Shown here: positions 2,434-25,845 of the stretch, in pieces
How the letters are laid out: each line of letters begins with the position of its first letter
Numbering within the stretch: the stretch's first letter is position 1
Virus record (IMG/VR): IMGVR_UViG_648276657_000007
Coordinates: 1 to 26,895 of that record
DNA length: 26,895 nucleotides
Source of the DNA: a virus
Lineage: Duplodnaviria; Heunggongvirae; Uroviricota; Caudoviricetes
Direction: 5' to 3' (one strand)
Notes under the pieces: generated by a model
What the model was told of the DNA's origin: nothing
Seen by the model: only the letters and a program-made list of their open reading frames with translations
The model's database searches: none
Translations under genes and position numbers: made by a program

Positions 2434-2871
2434 ATGACAAAAGAGAAATTATATAAATTACTATATGATATTTGGAAAAAATCCAGTCGTGCTTATTTTT
2501 CTGGCATAGGCGTTATTATATGTAATAACCCTGATAGCCTTCCCATCACAAGTCTTCGGAATATAGACCCCATACAGAATGATTCCACATTAGAATTATT
2601 ATCAAGAATTTCCAATAAAAATAGCGAATACCATGATGGCTTTCACATCTTAGATGAAGCAGGAAATGTTACTTATACCGCACAATATTTCTCACCACCA
2701 ATCATAGAGAACATCAGTTTTGACAGTTCAAGACTCGTCGGTGGACGTTTTGTTGCTGCCCTTTATGGCTCTTGCATTGACGAGATTAAACTTACTGGGA
2801 TTGTAGGCGAAAGAGGTCGTCTTTCTATATTTGAGGCTGGTAAAGAAGTTTATTACGAGGAGTTGCAATGA
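2434..2871 (+). CDS. Minimal DAC-fold (DisA_N / diadenylate-cyclase-like) protein with non-canonical catalytic motifs; candidate signal generator or sensor
   Basis: 145 aa; SD AGGAAG 8 nt upstream of the ATG. By-eye alignment to CdaA/DisA DAC motifs: GIGVII ~ GALIVI, STLELLSRI ~ SSELLINI, HDGFHIL ~ HDGAVIM, AQYFSPP ~ AACYLPLS, LVGGRFVAALYGS ~ LGTRHRAAVGIS, IVGERGRLSIF ~ IVSEETGGVSV. Stop overlaps the next ATG (ATGA at 2868-2871). Confidence 0.55.
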   Translation: MTKEKLYKLLYDIWKKSSRAYFSGIGVIICNNPDSLPITSLRNIDPIQNDSTLELLSRISNKNSEYHDGFHILDEAGNVTYTAQYFSPPIIENISFDSSRLVGGRFVAALYGSCIDEIKLTGIVGERGRLSIFEAGKEVYYEELQ

Positions 2872-3461
2872 TAAACCTTCTCCCAATATGGAAAATAATC
2901 TCAAGAATCTCCGTTATCTATGCGACTGTCTGCGGTCTGATTTTATTGGGCATATATGATGAAAACACAACTTTCATGACAGTCCTATCAGTTGCATCTG
3001 GAGGTTTGTTTATTCTTAATACTATTGTGATATCAATTTTTTTCTTTGGGTGGCGAAAGTTATGGCAATGGTTCCCTAAACTAAATAACCTACTCTTCCC
3101 TGATTTGAACGGAACCTGGGATATGGTTATTCATTGGGAATGGGAAGATAAAAAAGGCACATCCCACGCACAAGCAACTATAAAGCAGGATTTTCTTAAA
3201 ATTGGAATGGATGTCGAAGCTGACGACTCCGATTCTCAGACATTGGTGGCTAAGCCTAAAAAGGATACCGAAACGGGGCGACCAGAACTTTACTACGTTT
3301 TTTTAACAACCCCCAAGCATAAGGCAGGTTTTGGTCCACAAGATCCTTACATGGGCACAGCTATTCTCAAGCTAAATCTTAATGATAAAGACGTGTTAAA
3401 TGGGAACTACTTTACAAGCCGTAAAACAGTAGGTCATTACGAGCTGACACGCATTAACTAA
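2868..3461 (+). CDS. Two-transmembrane-helix membrane protein with about 135-aa C-terminal soluble domain; candidate membrane-disrupting effector (Cap15 / S-2TMbeta-like architecture)
   Basis: 197 aa; hydrophobic helices at roughly aa 12-30 (ISRISVIYATVCGLILLGIY) and 37-60 (MTVLSVASGGLFILNTIVISIFFFGW), followed by WRKLWQW and a hydrophilic domain; translationally coupled to the DAC-like gene. Confidence 0.6.
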   Translation: MINLLPIWKIISRISVIYATVCGLILLGIYDENTTFMTVLSVASGGLFILNTIVISIFFFGWRKLWQWFPKLNNLLFPDLNGTWDMVIHWEWEDKKGTSHAQATIKQDFLKIGMDVEADDSDSQTLVAKPKKDTETGRPELYYVFLTTPKHKAGFGPQDPYMGTAILKLNLNDKDVLNGNYFTSRKTVGHYELTRIN

Positions 3462-17937: not shown

Positions 17938-18074
17938 CACCCCGTCATCCCCCTCACACGCTCACCACTGCACAAAACACCCCGCAGACACACCAACCCC
18001 CAACGGGCAGACTAAGCGCCGTCACGACGCGCTGAGACGCTGGAAAATAAAATCAGCACCACCGCCAGCGCGCA

Positions 18075-18093
18075 GTGCTTTCCCCGCCTCGCC
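18075..18093. other. cos: cos cohesive-end sequence (P2/186 type)
   Basis: GTGCTTTCCCCGCCTCGCC is the reverse complement of the 19-nt P2 cohesive end GGCGAGGCGGGGAAAGCAC as I recall it; it sits in the expected place next to Q. Confidence 0.65.
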
Positions 18094-18240
18094 CGCCCGC
18101 TTCATGCAGGGCTTTAAATGCAGTGCAGCAGTAATGGTCAGAATGCGCCAGCACTGATGTCAGATACCAGAACTGGCATTTAAAAATGAATGCAAATAAA
18201 TGCACCAAACTAATTACTTACTGACAAAAAATAAGTAAAA

Positions 18241-19125
18241 TCAGGCGCAAGTTGGCATTGAGACCCCTTTCAGGGTATTAGGAATAATTATTTCAGGAGA
18301 AAAAATCATCACTTCCTCTCCAGATTTTTTGAGATGCGCTGTATATTGCAATGAATACTCAACTTGCGGAAATTCATTATAAATATCTTTAATTTCCTTA
18401 GCATTATCATAAGAAACAAGCCAATTTGGGAAATTAATTTCTGTGAGTTTCTTCATAACCAATACATGATCATCATGCTCATAAAAATTCCTGTAAAGCC
18501 CTTGCCCTTTAATATAGTAAGGAGGATCCAAATACAAAAGAATTTTATTTTTATCCACCTTTCCCATATTATCCATAAAATTCAAGGCATCAAGAAAATC
18601 CAAAGCATCCAGATTAGTTACTACTATTCTTTGATTATAATTTGCTATCTTCTCAATTCTTGAAATTAAATCCGCCCTGTTAAAGCGAACATCCATTTTC
18701 CATTTTCCATTTTGTGATTTCCCACCTATAACCCCCGCCTTGAGAATACCTGAACGATTTGTTCTATTTAAGAAAAACGCAGCAAAGCCAACCTCAAGCT
18801 TAGTAAACTCAGAAGGATTCGAAATAACATAGCGATGAAAAGACCATTCATCCATATCTATCTTTGCTCGGCTAATAAGTCGGCAAAGCTCATCAGTATC
18901 ACTAACAACAGATGACCAAAAAGAATAAACAGCAAAATCTGCATCATTTATATAGATTTTACGGACATACTCTTCCAATAATAATTCTAAAGCCACCCCT
19001 GCACCACCAGCGTAAGGTTCTGCATATGCTCCATCATTCAACGAGTTTTTTTCAATAACATCTTTTAAAAAGTAAGATAACTTACCTTTCCCGCCGGGGT
19101 ATCTTAATGGAGTATAAAATTTCAT
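18241..19125 (-). CDS. Dam-family (D12 class) N6-adenine DNA methyltransferase
   Basis: 294 aa; N-terminal RYPGGKGKL, AdoMet motif EPYAGGAGV, catalytic LYLDPPYY; AT-rich cargo island between cos and gene A. Confidence 0.85.
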   Translation of the reverse strand: MKFYTPLRYPGGKGKLSYFLKDVIEKNSLNDGAYAEPYAGGAGVALELLLEEYVRKIYINDADFAVYSFWSSVVSDTDELCRLISRAKIDMDEWSFHRYVISNPSEFTKLEVGFAAFFLNRTNRSGILKAGVIGGKSQNGKWKMDVRFNRADLISRIEKIANYNQRIVVTNLDALDFLDALNFMDNMGKVDKNKILLYLDPPYYIKGQGLYRNFYEHDDHVLVMKKLTEINFPNWLVSYDNAKEIKDIYNEFPQVEYSLQYTAHLKKSGEEVMIFSPEIIIPNTLKGVSMPTCA

Positions 19126-19162
19126 AAATCCCTCTCATTCCTGATTTTGTAGTTTATCAGTT

Positions 19163-19182
19163 TCTGGACATCCATGTCCAGA
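19163..19182. promoter_or_regulatory. Inverted repeat TCTGGACAT-cc-ATGTCCAGA between the ParB-like gene stop and the methyltransferase start; candidate operator or attenuator
   Basis: 9-bp perfect arms with a 2-bp spacer, about 40 bp upstream of the methyltransferase ATG (19125). Confidence 0.4.
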
Positions 19183-19194
19183 TGTAGACAAATC

Positions 19195-20739
19195 TCACTC
19201 ACTCCAAATAAGGCTTAATAACAACTCAAAGTTATCCCACTCAGTGTTGACAGCCTCTTTTGAGGGAATTAAGTGTGGGTTATGTACATACTGCTGCAAT
19301 GAACCATCATGTTTAGTTATTTGGCTCGAGAAAGTTATTACAGCCGTACATTGACTCCCCGTCATCTTTTTATTTTCCCGAAGGAAATTAGCACACATTT
19401 TAACCTTATCATGAAGCCCTGGAGTTCTATGCGGTTCCTTAAATTGTAACTTGTTTTCTTCAACAAAAGTGCTTACAGAGAGATCTATAAATATTCTCAA
19501 CAATATTGAGATAGCATTAGGGGTATTATCAAATGTCAGATGCGACTTAAGCTCATTAAATATTCTAGAGCATTTCTTATGCCCTCTAAAATTAAATTTC
19601 ACATAAGATGGCACCAACACATTACGATCTACTTTAGGAGGAGTTTTTCCCTTGCTTTTATTCTGTTCCGTACCCGAAACTTTAGATTTACTCTCTTCTG
19701 TGCCTACATGTCTAGAATAATCATCTTCCTGTTTATCCATACCTGTATTCTTTAAGGCATCACCTTCCTGTTTATCCATACCTGTATTCTTTAAGGCATC
19801 ACCTTCTGAAAGACCTACTTTCTTTACACTCACAGAGGCATCATTTTTGTCAATAGAATCATCTTTTTTCTCTGTAAGAAAAGATTTAGGCTCCAGTAAA
19901 CTCCACGGCTTATCTAAAAGAGATTCTGAAGGTTTTATTTTTTGTTCAATAATAAATGTAACCCTGTCATCTTGGCTACGAATCCTATTAACAGTAAAAC
20001 AAGCCTTACCTTTATCATCCTCTTCAATCATTACATCTAAAATATTTTTTAATTGTGCACAAAAACGTTCATAAGGCTGATATGAGTATAGAACTCCATT
20101 AATGCTTTTTAAATTAAAATAATCCCTCACCTTTAAATCACCAAAAAGACGCGTGATGTTTGTGATTTTTAAAAGTCTTTTTTTAGCAATTATCTCTTTA
20201 TATAAATCAGTATTGAACTCTATAAATGTAAGTATTTGATTACCAAATGACTGCTTACCCATCCTAGCCAGATGCCGTGCTTTTTCTGTTGCAGTCCATT
20301 CAACTCTTCCAACTCCAGCATTTTGACCAGTATGCTTTAAATTAACCCAATGCTCATATTCATCATCGTCAAAAAGAACGCAGTTATCTATAACATTAAT
20401 ATCTTTAAGCTGAGTAATCTTAAGTTTTTCAAAAGCTTTCCGTGCTTTTTCTGTTGGTGCAAGTCTAGGAGAGTGTAAAAGTTTAAGGGCTGTAACTCGA
20501 CGATTACCTTCAGCAACGACGAAAAAGCCAGATTCCTCTTCACTAGGATAAACTAATATGTTTTCAGACGGATCTAAACCTTTCGAAGCAATATCTTTAG
20601 CCAAGCGATAAATGCGGTCGTACTGCAAGTCAAGCATCTTGGCAATAGCATCACGCTGATTTTCTGCTGACGTCGGGAAACGAGGGTTATCAACATCCAA
20701 AAGTAACTTATTGATATTCATTGATTTTAGTTGATTCAT
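19195..20739 (-). CDS. ParB-N-domain (ParB/Srx nuclease-fold) protein with uncharacterised central and C-terminal regions; candidate partner of the adjacent methyltransferase
   Basis: Start chosen at MNQLKSMNINK, with SD GAGGAT about 8 nt upstream (514 aa); the six-frame ORF runs to 20808 (537 aa) but its first 16 codons cover a palindrome. ParB-like motifs LLLDVDNPRFP and FFVVAEGNRRVTALKLL. Contains an in-frame 2 x 13-aa duplication. Confidence 0.65.
   Translation of the reverse strand: MNQLKSMNINKLLLDVDNPRFPTSAENQRDAIAKMLDLQYDRIYRLAKDIASKGLDPSENILVYPSEEESGFFVVAEGNRRVTALKLLHSPRLAPTEKARKAFEKLKITQLKDINVIDNCVLFDDDEYEHWVNLKHTGQNAGVGRVEWTATEKARHLARMGKQSFGNQILTFIEFNTDLYKEIIAKKRLLKITNITRLFGDLKVRDYFNLKSINGVLYSYQPYERFCAQLKNILDVMIEEDDKGKACFTVNRIRSQDDRVTFIIEQKIKPSESLLDKPWSLLEPKSFLTEKKDDSIDKNDASVSVKKVGLSEGDALKNTGMDKQEGDALKNTGMDKQEDDYSRHVGTEESKSKVSGTEQNKSKGKTPPKVDRNVLVPSYVKFNFRGHKKCSRIFNELKSHLTFDNTPNAISILLRIFIDLSVSTFVEENKLQFKEPHRTPGLHDKVKMCANFLRENKKMTGSQCTAVITFSSQITKHDGSLQQYVHNPHLIPSKEAVNTEWDNFELLLSLIWSE
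19728..19805. repeat. Perfect 2 x 39-bp tandem duplication inside the ParB-like CDS
   Basis: cctgtttatccatacctgtattctttaaggcatcacctt occurs twice back to back; encodes EGDALKNTGMDKQ twice on the minus strand. Confidence 0.9.
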
Positions 20740-20760
20740 CAACATATCCTCTGTTGAATC

Positions 20761-20793
20761 TTTATGATAAAAATTAATTATTTTTATCATAAA
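20761..20793. promoter_or_regulatory. AT-rich palindrome TTTATGATAAAAAT-taatt-ATTTTTATCATAAA just upstream of the ParB-like gene; candidate operator
   Basis: 14-bp perfect inverted arms separated by 5 bp, 22-54 bp upstream of the preferred start codon. Confidence 0.45.
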
Positions 20794-21095
20794 TGATAGC
20801 GTAAACATAGTCTTATGAACGACATCAGCCCTGAAGCTTCAAAACTATCATTTACGTTTGCGAGGCATCATCTATCACATTGATTTATAATAAGTATCTT
20901 TATCTTCACTGCATTGCTCTCAAAAAATCACATAGATGGAAATTCCCCGTTGACACACTCCCAAGTGATGCAGATACATTTCAAGTGCTTCATACACATG
21001 ATAACGGCTATCCCCCTAAATTCTGTGCGTTTCTTTTCCCTCCAGCACAAGGTTGAAATATCTTGCGTGCAGCTTTACTTTGTGAATCTTTGTCA

Positions 21096-23381
21096 TTATG
21101 TCCGCGCCATTACTGTTGAGAATCCCGGCCACTCATCAGCGACCGGATACGTGAATTTTTTCCCGTCATAATTTACGGTCGCGCCACGCGCCAGCGCCTC
21201 AAGCTCCCATCGCTGCGGCCTGATACCGTTCTGAGCAAGGTCAACGCGGATACGGGTAATTTGCATTCTTTCCGACCGGGTCAGTCTGGCCGATGGTGCA
21301 ATTTCATGTGGTTTTAACGGGCTTCCGTTTCTCTGCTGACGATTTGGTGTTCTCAGCCCGTATTTTAATGCGCCCCTGAGCGCCCTCACGACCTCCGGGT
21401 CATTCCATTCGATAACACCGTCATCAACCAGATTAAGCACTGCTGCGGCGTGCTCAGAAGGCGTGGGAGCCGGTAACGAAGTATTACCGCCGGTGATCTT
21501 TCCACAGTTATTGACAGGACTCCGAGGCGCGGCGATGCCGCTTTTTAACGTCAAAGGCTCAACGACCGGCACTTTCGGCACAATGCGCCAGTCCGTCGTT
21601 CTGGTGATATGAATATGACGCGCGCCGAGATGCGGCGCGTAAATGCCGACCACTCTCTCGACTTCTTCCTCGTACTCGTTAACGTCATCCGACGGGCTAC
21701 GGGCAACCCTGACAGTCTGACAATCGCGCGGGACATTTGCCCCACCCTGCGCGCTGATATACAACGCAAAATCACCACTGTCTGCGGCAGCGCGAGCAGC
21801 CTCGACGCGTTCGTCAAACTCATCAGCAATACTGACGCCGCGAGGCAATTTGCGTAGTTCACGGTAAGCCCCCATTGTCGGCAGTCCAACCGTTTTAAAT
21901 TGCGGGATGCGCCACGTTGACGCCCATGCGGTAACAGCCGCGGCAGTATCTTTAAGCGGCTTACCGGTATCGTTATCGAGCTGACCATCCAGTGCATAGC
22001 CGTCGATATTTTTTGAAATGTATTTCGCGATATATCCCGCAGCACCGCCCCGGTTAAGGTGCTTTGCCTGAAAACGGTTTCGCGCGGCTCCTCTTTCGTC
22101 ACCATCCTCTTTGAGCGCATAGCGCCGCATGATTTCGATAATCTGGTTACGCTGGCGTGGATTACAAAAAAGCATCATATGCCAGTGCGGCGTTCCGTCG
22201 TGGTGTGGCTCGACGACACGCAAACCGTAGACCTGTAAATCATTATCCTTGAATGCCGTGCGCATCAGGCTCCAGATGCGGCAGAGATAACGCTGCGCAT
22301 CCTTTGGATTAAATGCCTCATCGTTCCAGCCGTGATTAAGCTGGACGGTTTTACTTTCGCCTTTTCCGACCTGACGTGTCGGGTGATACTTTGACGGCGC
22401 GGTCAGCGTGATAAACATCCCCACATCACCCTCTGCGGCGGCGTAACGCTCAATACCGGCGATGGTGTTCATCAGCTCCATCCGGCGAATTTCTGGATTA
22501 GAAATACTGCCCATCACCTTACTGATAAGGTCGATGCGCTCGCCGGTTTCCTTGTTTTCAAGGTCACACGATTTAAGAAATTCCAGATTTGCCTGGCGGC
22601 GCGCACGCACATCACGAATGGCATGTTTACTGGCATAAGGAGAACGGTCTTTATTGACCTCCCCGACAGCAATCAGTAACGCCTCATGCCAGCGCATACG
22701 CTGGCCTTTAAGCTGATGAGTCCACCATTCATCGTTAAACAGACGGGCAATGGCAGAATATGCCTGCCTCGTGGTCATCTGCCCTTTACGGTATTTTTTC
22801 CAGTAGAGCGGGGAAATATTGAAAGCACGTGCAGCGCCAGCAACATGACCATACAGGTGAGCCTGCGCCTCATCCGTAAACAGCGATTCTTTCTCGCCAT
22901 GCGCATCCACCCAGGCATCGCAGAGTTCCTCATACATTATGAAAAGCTGCGATGAGATACGGGCGGCAAACTTTTTCAGCTCCTTGTCATTCATTCCAGG
23001 CAGGCGCGCATAGTGGTCACGCTCTGCCAGAAACAGCAACGACGCGTCGGTGTTCATTTCATGGCGCTGATTAACGCGCTCAATGCGCGGCCATAAACGA
23101 CGCTGAAAAGTGGATGTGAGGAAATAAAACCCGTGCACCGGGCTTTTATTGCGCCGGATGTAGTCATAGCGTGAAGTAAACAGCGAGCGCAAAAAGTAAG
23201 GCAGGCGATTAATCGTGGATAAAACACCTTGCACCTGACGCATCTCGTCACGTGTAAGGGGTCTTTCGCGCCCGACGGCCTCGCGTGGCGCGTTCCATGC
23301 ATAAGCACCGGTAAACGTCTCACCGGTGCCTGCGGCAAATGCTGACGGAGGGACAAAACGCCCGGAGGCTTTAACGGCCAT
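21096..23381 (-). CDS. A: Rolling-circle replication initiator (P2 gpA-like)
   Basis: Start at MAVKASGRFVPPSAFAAGTGE (761 aa); the six-frame ORF has a 14-codon extension; contains the HWHMM metal-binding motif of rolling-circle initiators. Confidence 0.9.
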   Translation of the reverse strand: MAVKASGRFVPPSAFAAGTGETFTGAYAWNAPREAVGRERPLTRDEMRQVQGVLSTINRLPYFLRSLFTSRYDYIRRNKSPVHGFYFLTSTFQRRLWPRIERVNQRHEMNTDASLLFLAERDHYARLPGMNDKELKKFAARISSQLFIMYEELCDAWVDAHGEKESLFTDEAQAHLYGHVAGAARAFNISPLYWKKYRKGQMTTRQAYSAIARLFNDEWWTHQLKGQRMRWHEALLIAVGEVNKDRSPYASKHAIRDVRARRQANLEFLKSCDLENKETGERIDLISKVMGSISNPEIRRMELMNTIAGIERYAAAEGDVGMFITLTAPSKYHPTRQVGKGESKTVQLNHGWNDEAFNPKDAQRYLCRIWSLMRTAFKDNDLQVYGLRVVEPHHDGTPHWHMMLFCNPRQRNQIIEIMRRYALKEDGDERGAARNRFQAKHLNRGGAAGYIAKYISKNIDGYALDGQLDNDTGKPLKDTAAAVTAWASTWRIPQFKTVGLPTMGAYRELRKLPRGVSIADEFDERVEAARAAADSGDFALYISAQGGANVPRDCQTVRVARSPSDDVNEYEEEVERVVGIYAPHLGARHIHITRTTDWRIVPKVPVVEPLTLKSGIAAPRSPVNNCGKITGGNTSLPAPTPSEHAAAVLNLVDDGVIEWNDPEVVRALRGALKYGLRTPNRQQRNGSPLKPHEIAPSARLTRSERMQITRIRVDLAQNGIRPQRWELEALARGATVNYDGKKFTYPVADEWPGFSTVMART

Positions 23382-23646
23382 ATGAGCCAAAAGCCTCTGA
23401 ACAACGCTTGCTGAGTTGCTCAACCTGCGCGTTTAAATCAGCAAAAGACTTTGCGCTTCCGGTCAGAATATCGTGATGCATCAGGCCGGAAACGAGCTGG
23501 CTTAATTTCGGGTAATAACCAACCACCGCCAGCCATTCCTGACCGGCGTTTTTACCGCTTTCAGCTCTCTTTTTCTCGTGGAGAATAAACTGAAAGCTGT
23601 CACTGGTAACGACATAACGTTCGCCAATTTCAATACGAATACTCAT
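23371..23646 (-). CDS. Hypothetical early-region protein (P2 orf83 position)
   Basis: 91-aa ORF overlapping the A start by 11 nt. Confidence 0.6.
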   Translation of the reverse strand: MSIRIEIGERYVVTSDSFQFILHEKKRAESGKNAGQEWLAVVGYYPKLSQLVSGLMHHDILTGSAKSFADLNAQVEQLSKRCSEAFGSYGR

Positions 23647-25151: not shown

Positions 25152-25399
25152 GCATCACGCTGTTCAACTGGTCGGTTATAAAACGCCTCTCGTACAGCGC
25201 GATTAAACTCTGGAATGAAAACCCACTTCTCACCGACACGGGCGTTCGGCTTACTTGGATCACGAAGCTCAATAACTGGCAATTTATTCTCTTTTACCAT
25301 CTTGACTACAGCCGTTTCTGGCTTACCAAGTAACTCTGCAAACTTAACCGTATGTACCGCATCAATCGGGTACTGAATCACATAGTCATTGACTTCCAT
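25127..25399 (-). CDS. cox: Cox/Apl-like excisionase and transcriptional regulator
   Basis: 90 aa; first gene of the early operon, divergent from C; KLPVIELRDP...WLLWMGL resembles P2 Cox (GKLPVIDMTDP...WLMWLGL) as I recall it. Confidence 0.75.
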   Translation of the reverse strand: MEVNDYVIQYPIDAVHTVKFAELLGKPETAVVKMVKENKLPVIELRDPSKPNARVGEKWVFIPEFNRAVREAFYNRPVEQRDAWLLWMGL

Positions 25400-25522
25400 T
25401 GATTAGCCCTTTTTGCTTTCGTGTTACCCTTATTAGATCCAGTCCCTTCTAGGTCGCCCTTGTCCTTTCTAGGGACTGGCTAACACACTCAAAAGGTCAC
25501 CAATACACAACCTTTTGACGGG

Positions 25523-25551
25523 AATATAAGTCACCAATGGGTTACTGTCAA
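25523..25551 (-). promoter_or_regulatory. Candidate early promoter Pe (sigma70-type) reading toward cox, flanked by direct-repeat operator half-sites
   Basis: Minus strand TTGACA (25551..25546), 17-nt spacer, TATATT (25528..25523). Direct repeats GGTCACCAAT at 25495-25504 and AGTCACCAAT at 25529-25538 flank the -10. The -35 abuts the C start codon. Confidence 0.5.
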
Positions 25552-25845
25552 ATGCAGACATTCGAAAAACTGAAAGCGATTAGGAAAGCAGAAGGCTTAA
25601 CACAGGCGAAATTCAGCGAAATTAGCGGGATAGCTCTAGGAACAGTCAAAAATTACGAAAGTGGGCATAAAGACCCTGGTCTCAGCATCGTTATGCGAGT
25701 CACAAATACGCCTTTATTTAAAAAATATACGCTCTGGTTAATGACTGGTGATACGTCACCACAAGCTGGTCAGATCGCGCCGGCTCTCGCACACATTGGG
25801 CAAAAACCAACAGAATCAGACCACTCCGAAAAACAGACTGGTTAA
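25552..25845 (+). CDS. C: Immunity repressor C (P2 C-family)
   Basis: Start chosen at MQTFEKLKAIRKAEGLTQ (97 aa); the C-terminus KYTLWLMTGD...GQIAPALAHIGQK resembles P2 C (KYTLWFMTNQ...GQIAPALAHFGQN) as I recall it. Confidence 0.75.
   Translation: MQTFEKLKAIRKAEGLTQAKFSEISGIALGTVKNYESGHKDPGLSIVMRVTNTPLFKKYTLWLMTGDTSPQAGQIAPALAHIGQKPTESDHSEKQTG

Follow-up and report, generated by a model that had tools for sequence, protein, structure and literature searches.

A lineage-specific AT-rich palindrome over the predicted promoter of a PD-lambda-5 defence operon in a P2-like prophage: a candidate operator

The DNA analysed here, referred to as the window (26,895 nucleotides), is a P2-like prophage. 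The gene for the gpA replication endonuclease (PF05840) occupies positions 21096-23423 on the - strand, the portal, terminase and capsid genes lie at 12.9-17.9 kb, and tail-fibre genes are found at 4.3-6.2 kb. Between gpA and the portal gene is a 3-kb island with a G+C content of 33-37% in a genome of 52-60% G+C, at the position known in P2 as the tin/old cargo hotspot. This island holds two co-oriented genes on the - strand, which we call A (19195..20739) and B (18241..19125). Directly after gpA, where the G+C content steps down, lies a truncated and frameshifted remnant of a DUF3850/ASCH gene (21015..21096, - strand; a pseudogene in RefSeq). The remnant marks the upstream edge of the inserted low-GC cassette, and with this pseudogene at ~21015-21096 the cassette can be dated as an insertion. 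The feature under study, a 33-bp palindrome at 20761-20793, is located in the 276-nt spacer upstream of gene A.

Both gene products are matched by PADLOC profiles for the defence system PD-lambda-5. Profile PDLC03998 (PD-Lambda-5_A) aligns over positions 1-465 of 466 to residues 24-536 of the longest open reading frame of gene A (E 1.6e-167). Gene B, 69 nt downstream on the same strand, matches PDLC04018 (PD-Lambda-5_B, E 7.9e-122) and encodes a D12-class (Dam-like) N6-adenine DNA methyltransferase; PF02086 (4.4e-16) covers residues 9-256 of this 294-residue protein, which has no N-terminal helix-turn-helix (HTH) extension. A structure search with the methylase returned a generic adenine methylase (7m6b) as the sole PDB match, from which no recognition site could be inferred. 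A Pfam search with protein A gave no match. In the AlphaFold (AF2) model of this protein (pLDDT 76), the N- and C-terminal regions are parted by a disordered linker. The ParB/Srx-like N-terminal region resembles KorB, ParB, PadC and sulfiredoxin (Srx), with KorB and ParB as the best matches, covering the N-domain and part of the following helices. The C-terminal region resembles HEPN toxins, the sacsin HEPN domain and Csm6, and an invariant R438-x4-H443 constitutes an Rx4H-type motif. The signature motif of the protein is EGNRR. With the profile match, the adjacent D12 methylase and the ParB/HEPN architecture, the A-B pair is by its sequence a member of the PD-lambda-5 family.

PD-lambda-5 came out of a functional selection in E. 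coli ECOR7, is annotated as 'ParB/HEPN, methyltransferase', and was described by Vassallo et al. 2022 as a compacted RM+Abi system (PMC9519451). Cloned with its native flanks into a promoterless vector, the ECOR7 system protected MG1655 delta-mrr against most phages tested (PMC9519451). The cloned native upstream flank comprised 272 or 428 bp, depending on the orientation of the deposited coordinates. The two-gene span in ECOR7 (2,461 nt) fits the 501-aa form of protein A found in E. coli, a likeness by gene span only. Literature on this system beyond the discovery paper consisted of survey papers only. Protein A itself measures 514 aa in the window and 501 aa in most other E. coli copies. In the disordered linker a 13-aa unit (GDALKNTGMDKQE) is duplicated, encoded by a 39-nt tandem repeat at 19720-19806 (2.2 copies, 97% matches).

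Two further stretches of the window deserve mention as cargo. A second low-GC region (2434-3461, + strand) adjoins the tail-fibre assembly gene. It encodes a 145-aa protein with a weak match to DisA-type diadenylate cyclases (DAC; E 3.6e-5, under the gathering score). The gene after it, overlapping by 4 nt, codes for a 197-aa 2TM effector that contains a Cap15 cyclic-dinucleotide receptor domain (E 8e-20) and matches the CBASS '2TM effector' in PADLOC (3e-31). This pair may represent minimal cyclic-nucleotide defence signalling in which a DAC-like cyclase takes the place of a CD-NTase. At the left end of the window, an open reading frame that starts at 1902 and runs to base 1 (1-1902, - strand) codes for an ABC/AAA_15/AAA_21 ATPase fused to DUF4435. 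This OLD/Gabija/PARIS-like ATPase, with NsnB (4e-20) and AriAB (3e-18) as its best PADLOC matches, is also defence-type cargo.

The longest open reading frame of gene A (19195..20808, - strand) indeed runs through the palindrome, as the initial annotation had stated; around the start the - strand reads ...CAACAGAGGATATGTTGATGAATCAA. The same annotation had preferred the ATG at 20739 for its convincing Shine-Dalgarno sequence, and this choice is now supported from several sides. The sequence AGAGGA (20752-20747, - strand) is positioned 7 nt upstream of this codon, and ACAGAGGAT is kept in relatives. The ATG at 20745 lies only 1 nt from AGAGGA, and neither ATG 20808 nor ATG 20790 is preceded by a Shine-Dalgarno sequence. 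In E. coli genomes, PGAP places the start of the coding sequence at the equivalent of position 20739. The match to the PADLOC profile starts with residue 24 of the long frame, at MNQLKS. More than 100 homologues with identities down to 37% begin 5-8 residues before a conserved block I-N-K-L-L-L-D-x-x-N-P-R-F, also given in its invariant form as L-L-D-x-x-N-x-R-F.

Translation from ATG 20808 (or 20790), which would make the repeat part of a coding N-terminal extension, can draw on the open frame from 20808 and on a single old GenBank entry with the long form (EFJ55841.1, 537 aa). Against this stand the missing Shine-Dalgarno sequences, the common MNQ start of PGAP, profile and homologues, and the upstream frame of relatives, which is unrelated in sequence or broken by stop codons; current RefSeq records already use 20739. 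We consider a coding palindrome extremely improbable, to the point of effective exclusion, and rejected the long frame as the real gene. The evidence supports ATG 20739 as the true start of a 514-aa protein, and the palindrome is therefore untranslated.

On the + strand, positions 20761-20793 read TTTATGATAAAAAT-taatt-ATTTTTATCATAAA. The two 14-nt arms (20761-20774 and 20780-20793) are 100% complementary and enclose a 5-nt spacer (20775-20779), which confirms the 33-bp palindrome with perfect 14-bp arms described earlier. It is the longest perfect inverted repeat of the 26.9-kb window, where the runner-up has arms of 10 nt. Arms of 14 nt did not occur in any dinucleotide shuffle of the AT-rich island (18000-21015, 0/300), of the local 496 nt (0/300) or of the whole window (0/60). 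The palindrome is therefore not a chance product of AT-richness; it exists and is non-random. As single-stranded DNA it folds with -10.7 kcal/mol (z -5.5).

Several roles for this sequence could be eliminated. Function as a terminator of the upstream gene was rejected since the repeat has no G+C-rich stem (one G-C pair in 14), is followed by AAAGATTC rather than a T-run, and the region gave no terminator-like site (0). We found no further copy of the half-site in the prophage window. The 45-nt palindrome region matched only the 22 island-bearing genomes among E. coli genomes, with all other matches at E 2-8, and the palindrome was not found upstream of any other E. coli gene. The complete 276-nt upstream region gave no match in plasmid and phage collections and none elsewhere in E. 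coli. With a half-site that is single in the window and a 45-nt region that is bound to the island, we rejected the possibility of a repeated or mobile element or a regulon site.

To locate promoter elements we used a consensus scan and an approximate position weight matrix (PWM) for sigma-70. The consensus scan called four promoter-like sites in the region, compared to 1.6 +/- 1.3 in shuffles, and every sigma-70-like hexamer pair upstream of gene A overlaps the palindrome. The best pair consists of TTTACG (20805-20800) and AATAAT (20782-20777) on the - strand (20777..20805). Its 17-nt spacer falls in the 16-18 nt expected between -35 and -10 elements and 9/12 positions agree, by consensus match only. 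This pair has the top PWM score in the window and in the E. coli-lineage copy L087, and is absent in relatives; its AATAAT is the centre of the palindrome. A second, overlapping PWM pair (20764..20792, - strand) is made by the two palindrome arms themselves, with TTATGA (20792-20787) and TATCAT (20769-20764) separated by 17 nt. On the opposite strand, a mirror-image pair (20739..20768, + strand; TCAACA, 18-nt spacer, TATGAT), found by consensus match only, uses the other arm as its -10 element. The left arm, which is the gene-proximal upstream arm, holds TTATGATAAAAA including the -10-like hexamer TATGAT (20786..20791, - strand), itself part of a conserved 12-mer TTATGATA[A/G]AAA (20792-20781). 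Further promoter-like sites are found upstream at 21057-21122. These matches suggest that the core promoter and start region of the PD-lambda-5 operon coincide with the palindrome. The earlier placement of the palindrome in a promoter or leader thus holds as a statement of position, given the overlapping hexamer pairs and the conserved TATGAT, and does not extend beyond position.

We aligned the upstream regions of 16 close relatives collected from IMG/VR, metagenomes, Logan and NCBI contigs, comprising E. coli-lineage variants and loci with 66-78% protein identity. The 12-mer TTATGATA[A/G]AAA is nearly invariant in this alignment, followed by a variable linker, a conserved TTTTGAC and the conserved leader CATAAAGATTCAACAGAGGATGTGTTGATG. 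TATGAT is kept in 14 of the 16 sequences, from clades with 72-78% protein identity, and starts 51-54 nt before the ATG (52 nt in the window). In the relatives this hexamer pairs with TTAAC[A/G/C] at a rather long spacing of 19 nt. When the cassette occurs in unrelated contexts (next to gpA, DinI, ArdC, integrases or ThsB), homology starts ~25 nt upstream of TATGAT, as would be expected for a minimal promoter that is carried with the cassette.

The palindrome is not conserved in the same way. No stable or conserved DNA or RNA hairpin was found at its position in the close relatives, and the equivalent segments fold with z values between 0 and -1.9, compared to -5.5 in the window. In the sister clade the right arm is TTTTGACCATAA, which is complementary to the left arm at 10/12 positions with spacers of 4-9 nt. 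Across the alignment the 14 pairs of the window are retained at 71.6%, compared to 37-55% in slid controls, with the qualification that one of the aligned sequences supplied the structure and that an A-tract facing a T-tract accounts for most of the retained pairs. Of the inner pairs, two fail to form, one in 11 and the other in 14 of the 16 sequences. A survey of the 150 nt upstream of 76 distant homologous loci revealed no family-wide long inverted repeat; arms of at least 8 nt were present in 10/76 of these loci (~3 expected), and several of them resemble terminators of the preceding gene. On these 76 loci we rejected a family-wide autoregulatory palindrome.

Of 5426 complete E. coli genomes, 22 carry the island, and only these have the perfect palindrome, together with near-identical copies in IMG/VR and metagenomes. 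This lineage is near-clonal. The natural copy L087 contains an arm mismatch (20784 T>C), and the palindrome, with 1 SNP in 33 nt, is no poorer in SNPs than the remaining spacer (7/~330 nt); no signal of purifying selection was seen within the E. coli lineage, where variation is too scarce. Among 13 copies of the spacer from this lineage a single polymorphism is common, at position 20868, with T in the window, L083 and L088 and C in the others. NCTC9008 has a 6-nt slippage deletion in GAAGATAAAGATA at ~20900-20905.

Templated correction of quasi-palindromes is an established mutational mechanism. By such a route, the palindrome may be a neutral by-product: a quasi-palindrome in the promoter (TTATGATAAAAA ... 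TTTTGACCATAA) could have been perfected and lengthened in one intrastrand template-switching step, or a perfect repeat could have decayed in the sister clade. The sequence would then be plain promoter and leader DNA without a dedicated binding protein. The imperfect 10/12 repeat at the same place in the sister clade is consistent with this scenario, as is the observation that the two consistently unpaired positions in relatives (G and C of TTTTGAC) are those that differ in the window. A stretch of 33 nt contains the cluster of changes, and the 30 nt that follow are almost identical. In a near-clonal lineage the repeat could persist without selection, and the natural arm mismatch in L087 and the absence of the perfect repeat from relatives fit as well. 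On the other hand, a perfect 14-bp repeat that covers a -10 element is classically an operator, and neutral origin leaves unexplained the extra ATGATA sites and the second 10-nt inverted repeat described below. In the protein tree the E. coli lineage branches as the sister group of the entire 72-93% clade, and no outgroup can be aligned in the palindrome segment, so that the perfect repeat may be either the derived or the ancestral state. We regard neutral origin as a serious possibility, nearly as likely as an operator.

The repeat might instead act as RNA. In transcripts that start further upstream, by read-through from the gpA/early operon or from a promoter in 20810-21090, the 5' leader would contain a 14-bp A-U hairpin 8 nt before the Shine-Dalgarno sequence, which could stabilise the mRNA, pause the polymerase or modulate translation. 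The full hairpin is part of the minimum free energy structure of the palindrome in an 81-nt RNA context (-17.6 kcal/mol, z -3.4), and the promoter-like sites at 21057-21122 could supply such transcripts. Some relatives have a TG-extended -10 element (TGCTAGTAT) 12 nt upstream of TATGAT, which would place both arms in the RNA, and the variable loop length in relatives would be better tolerated by a hairpin than by a site for a dimeric protein. However, from the three best promoter candidates in the E. coli lineage, transcription would begin within the palindrome or beyond it. Relatives do not conserve the hairpin, and their pairing is mostly A-tract with T-tract; the hairpin is accompanied by neither a U-tract nor a terminator call. 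Rfam covariance models gave no match at 20700-20850, nor at 19150-19190, even with E up to 1. An RNA role for the palindrome is therefore unlikely on present evidence.

The hexamer ATGATA that is contained in both arms is repeated in the vicinity. Five copies are found in the 276-nt spacer upstream of gene A (20764, 20785, 20793, 20846 and 20998), compared to 15 in the 26.9-kb window. Besides the two arm copies, these are three extra sites where ~0.3 would be expected (P ~0.003), an enrichment that was noticed post hoc. Four sites of the form T-W-W-ATGATA-R occur with alternating orientation in 20761-20854, within 94 nt. One pair of sites produces a second perfect inverted repeat with 10-nt arms: TAAATGATAG (20790..20799) overlaps the palindrome end and shares its ATGATA core, and its partner CTATCATTTA (20845..20854) is the fourth ATGATA-type site in these 94 nt. 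Only the E. coli lineage has this array, a single copy being usual in relatives.

We inspected the region for sites of host regulators (Fur, ArcA, IHF, ArgR, Lrp, Fis, DnaA, H-NS and Nac) using consensus sequences. A conserved site for a host regulator or nucleoid protein, with Fur-like TGATAA half-sites, an ArcA site, a Nac/LysR-type ATA-N9-TAT or H-NS silencing as the options, would tie expression of the defence genes to host physiology. The scan returned 13/19 matches to the Fur 19-mer, 11/14 to the Fur 7-1-7 arrangement, 11/15 to ArcA and an ATA-N9-TAT. Low-GC DNA of the kind found in the island is a target of H-NS, and the island with 33-37% GC is embedded in a prophage with 52-60% GC. 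Yet the match to the H-NS motif is poor (6/10), at least 4-6% of random 65-nt pieces of the island reach the same scores, and none of the matches is significant after ten tests. Together with the absence of the palindrome upstream of any other E. coli gene, these numbers make control by a host regulator decidedly improbable. Control by the immunity repressor of the prophage was rejected because the Pe/Pc region (25380-25560) contains CCTTCTAGG-type repeats that are unrelated to ATGATA.

A second element was found in the 69-nt spacer between genes A and B (19151..19182, - strand). It contains a stem-loop TCTGGACAT-gg-ATGTCCAGA (19182-19163) that overlaps a promoter-like TGGACA, 18-nt spacer and TG-n-TAAACT (19180-19151), with TGATATACT in relatives. 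Unlike the 5' palindrome, this stem-loop is conserved in relatives, with compensatory changes from C-G to A-U in 4/12 sequences and G.U wobbles; the L091 version reads AAACATAGACAT-gg-ATGTCTATGTTT. The distant loci L113, L114, L094 and L005 have unrelated hairpins at this position, each followed by a good -10 element. The covariation suggests that the A-B element is probably a family-wide, separate control point that gives the methylase its own expression signal, and it is likely to serve as a separate point of control or processing for this gene.

For the palindrome upstream of gene A, we tentatively favour, at somewhat less than even confidence, an operator-like site that is specific to the E. 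coli lineage and placed at the core promoter, where it would hold down transcription of the gene with the HEPN domain. According to this proposal, the non-coding palindrome would belong to the core promoter of the PD-lambda-5 operon and to its early leader. The upstream arm would carry the ancestral TATGAT -10-like element, and the predicted transcription start, with the first ~20 nt of the leader, would fall in the centre and downstream arm. In the E. coli lineage, an imperfect repeat would have become a perfect 14+14 palindrome flanked by further ATGATA half-sites. A dimeric protein bound to this DNA would occlude RNA polymerase and thereby keep the expression of a potentially toxic HEPN protein low. 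The leading candidate for this protein would be the ParB/KorB-like protein A; the alternative is a host factor. Promoter position, protein binding and repression at the palindrome are what we infer from sequence.

Several observations argue for an operator. The perfect 14-nt arms are never matched by shuffles, the dyad-symmetric site overlaps the core promoter elements and is not translated, and the 12-mer with TATGAT is held at a fixed distance from the ATG across clades of 72-78% identity. The native flank of the ECOR7 system (272 or 428 bp) sufficed for defence from a promoterless vector. The three extra ATGATA sites with alternating orientation, one pair of which forms the second inverted repeat, also speak for it. 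These arguments are weakened by the restriction of the perfect palindrome to one near-clonal lineage (22/5426 genomes). The protein of the relatives is well conserved, yet their arms are mismatched, their spacers vary from 4 to 9 nt and they form no stable hairpin. A dyad conserved upstream of orthologous genes was found neither in the close relatives nor in the 76 distant loci. The arm mismatch of L087, the SNP density that is not below that of the spacer, the single half-site in the prophage, host-regulator consensuses that do not rise above the AT-rich background and the post hoc nature of the ATGATA enrichment point in the same direction.

The initial annotation had suggested an operator for the ParB-like protein or a host regulator. 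By comparison this idea has lost ground, with a lineage-bound dyad, no family-wide palindrome, a single copy and regulator matches at background level. One point in favour of its ParB part is the ParB/KorB-like fold of protein A, with the ParB-superfamily protein DndB as a precedent for autoregulation through promoter palindromes (PMC4507180). By analogy with DndB and KorB, autoregulation by the ParB-like protein through the palindrome is plausible; that protein A itself is the putative binder we consider rather unlikely overall. A more specific version, in which the palindrome and the ATGATA sites would form a parS/OB-like loading and operator site, and a CTP/ATP-switch clamp of the ParB-HEPN protein would autoregulate the operon and license or restrain the HEPN RNase, also seems improbable. 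If true, an anti-phage system would here contain a cis-acting 'centromere-like' site.

Experiments have validated PD-lambda-5 as a broad-range defence system, and knowledge of the true start and of the promoter location is useful for its cloning and dissection. If the palindrome is bound by the ParB-like effector, it would offer a first way into the silencing of a ParB/Srx-HEPN protein. As a lineage-restricted candidate operator, the palindrome itself is of limited general significance.

How does this site compare to known systems? DndB, a member of the ParB superfamily, binds palindromic motifs in the promoter of its own dnd (phosphorothioate) operon and represses it (PMC4507180). DndB is encoded first in its operon; at the locus described here a ParB/Srx-fold protein is likewise the first product of a modification-linked defence operon, and a palindrome lies over the predicted promoter. 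In contrast to the DndB motif, TACG-N10-CGTA, which occurs twice, the repeat upstream of gene A is an AT-only 14+14 repeat with a 5-nt spacer. Protein A carries the signature EGNRR and not DGQHR, and the palindrome, a candidate site, is not conserved among orthologous loci.

In structure, the N-terminal region of protein A comes closest to KorB and ParB, the CTP-dependent clamps that are loaded at palindromes (OB and parS). KorB and ParB recognise palindromes of 13-16 bp, and KorB represses promoters from such sites. However, the sequence of the palindrome is unrelated to parS or OB, it is a single site without a partition function, and the C-terminus of protein A is HEPN RNase-like instead of a dimerisation domain.

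The location of a palindrome over the promoter of a nuclease-plus-methylase-type module also recalls the operators of restriction-modification systems, such as C-boxes or the sites of SsoII/EcoRII methylase autorepression. With only two genes between gpA and the portal gene and no small HTH open reading frame, the island has no counterpart of a C-protein gene, and unlike the SsoII/EcoRII-type proteins its methylase lacks an N-terminal HTH extension. Also unlike restriction-modification units, the methylase seems to own a promoter and hairpin in the A-B spacer. Finally, the locus resembles described cases of quasi-palindrome template switching, with an imperfect repeat in relatives, a longer perfect one in the window and clustered multi-base changes, although this mechanism accounts for mutational origin and not for function. 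As judged by these comparisons, the palindrome is operator-like by position and fails on conservation, and is not classifiable as a parS/OB site, a C-box or a DndB site. We see in it a hitherto undescribed example of a familiar type of feature within a known system.
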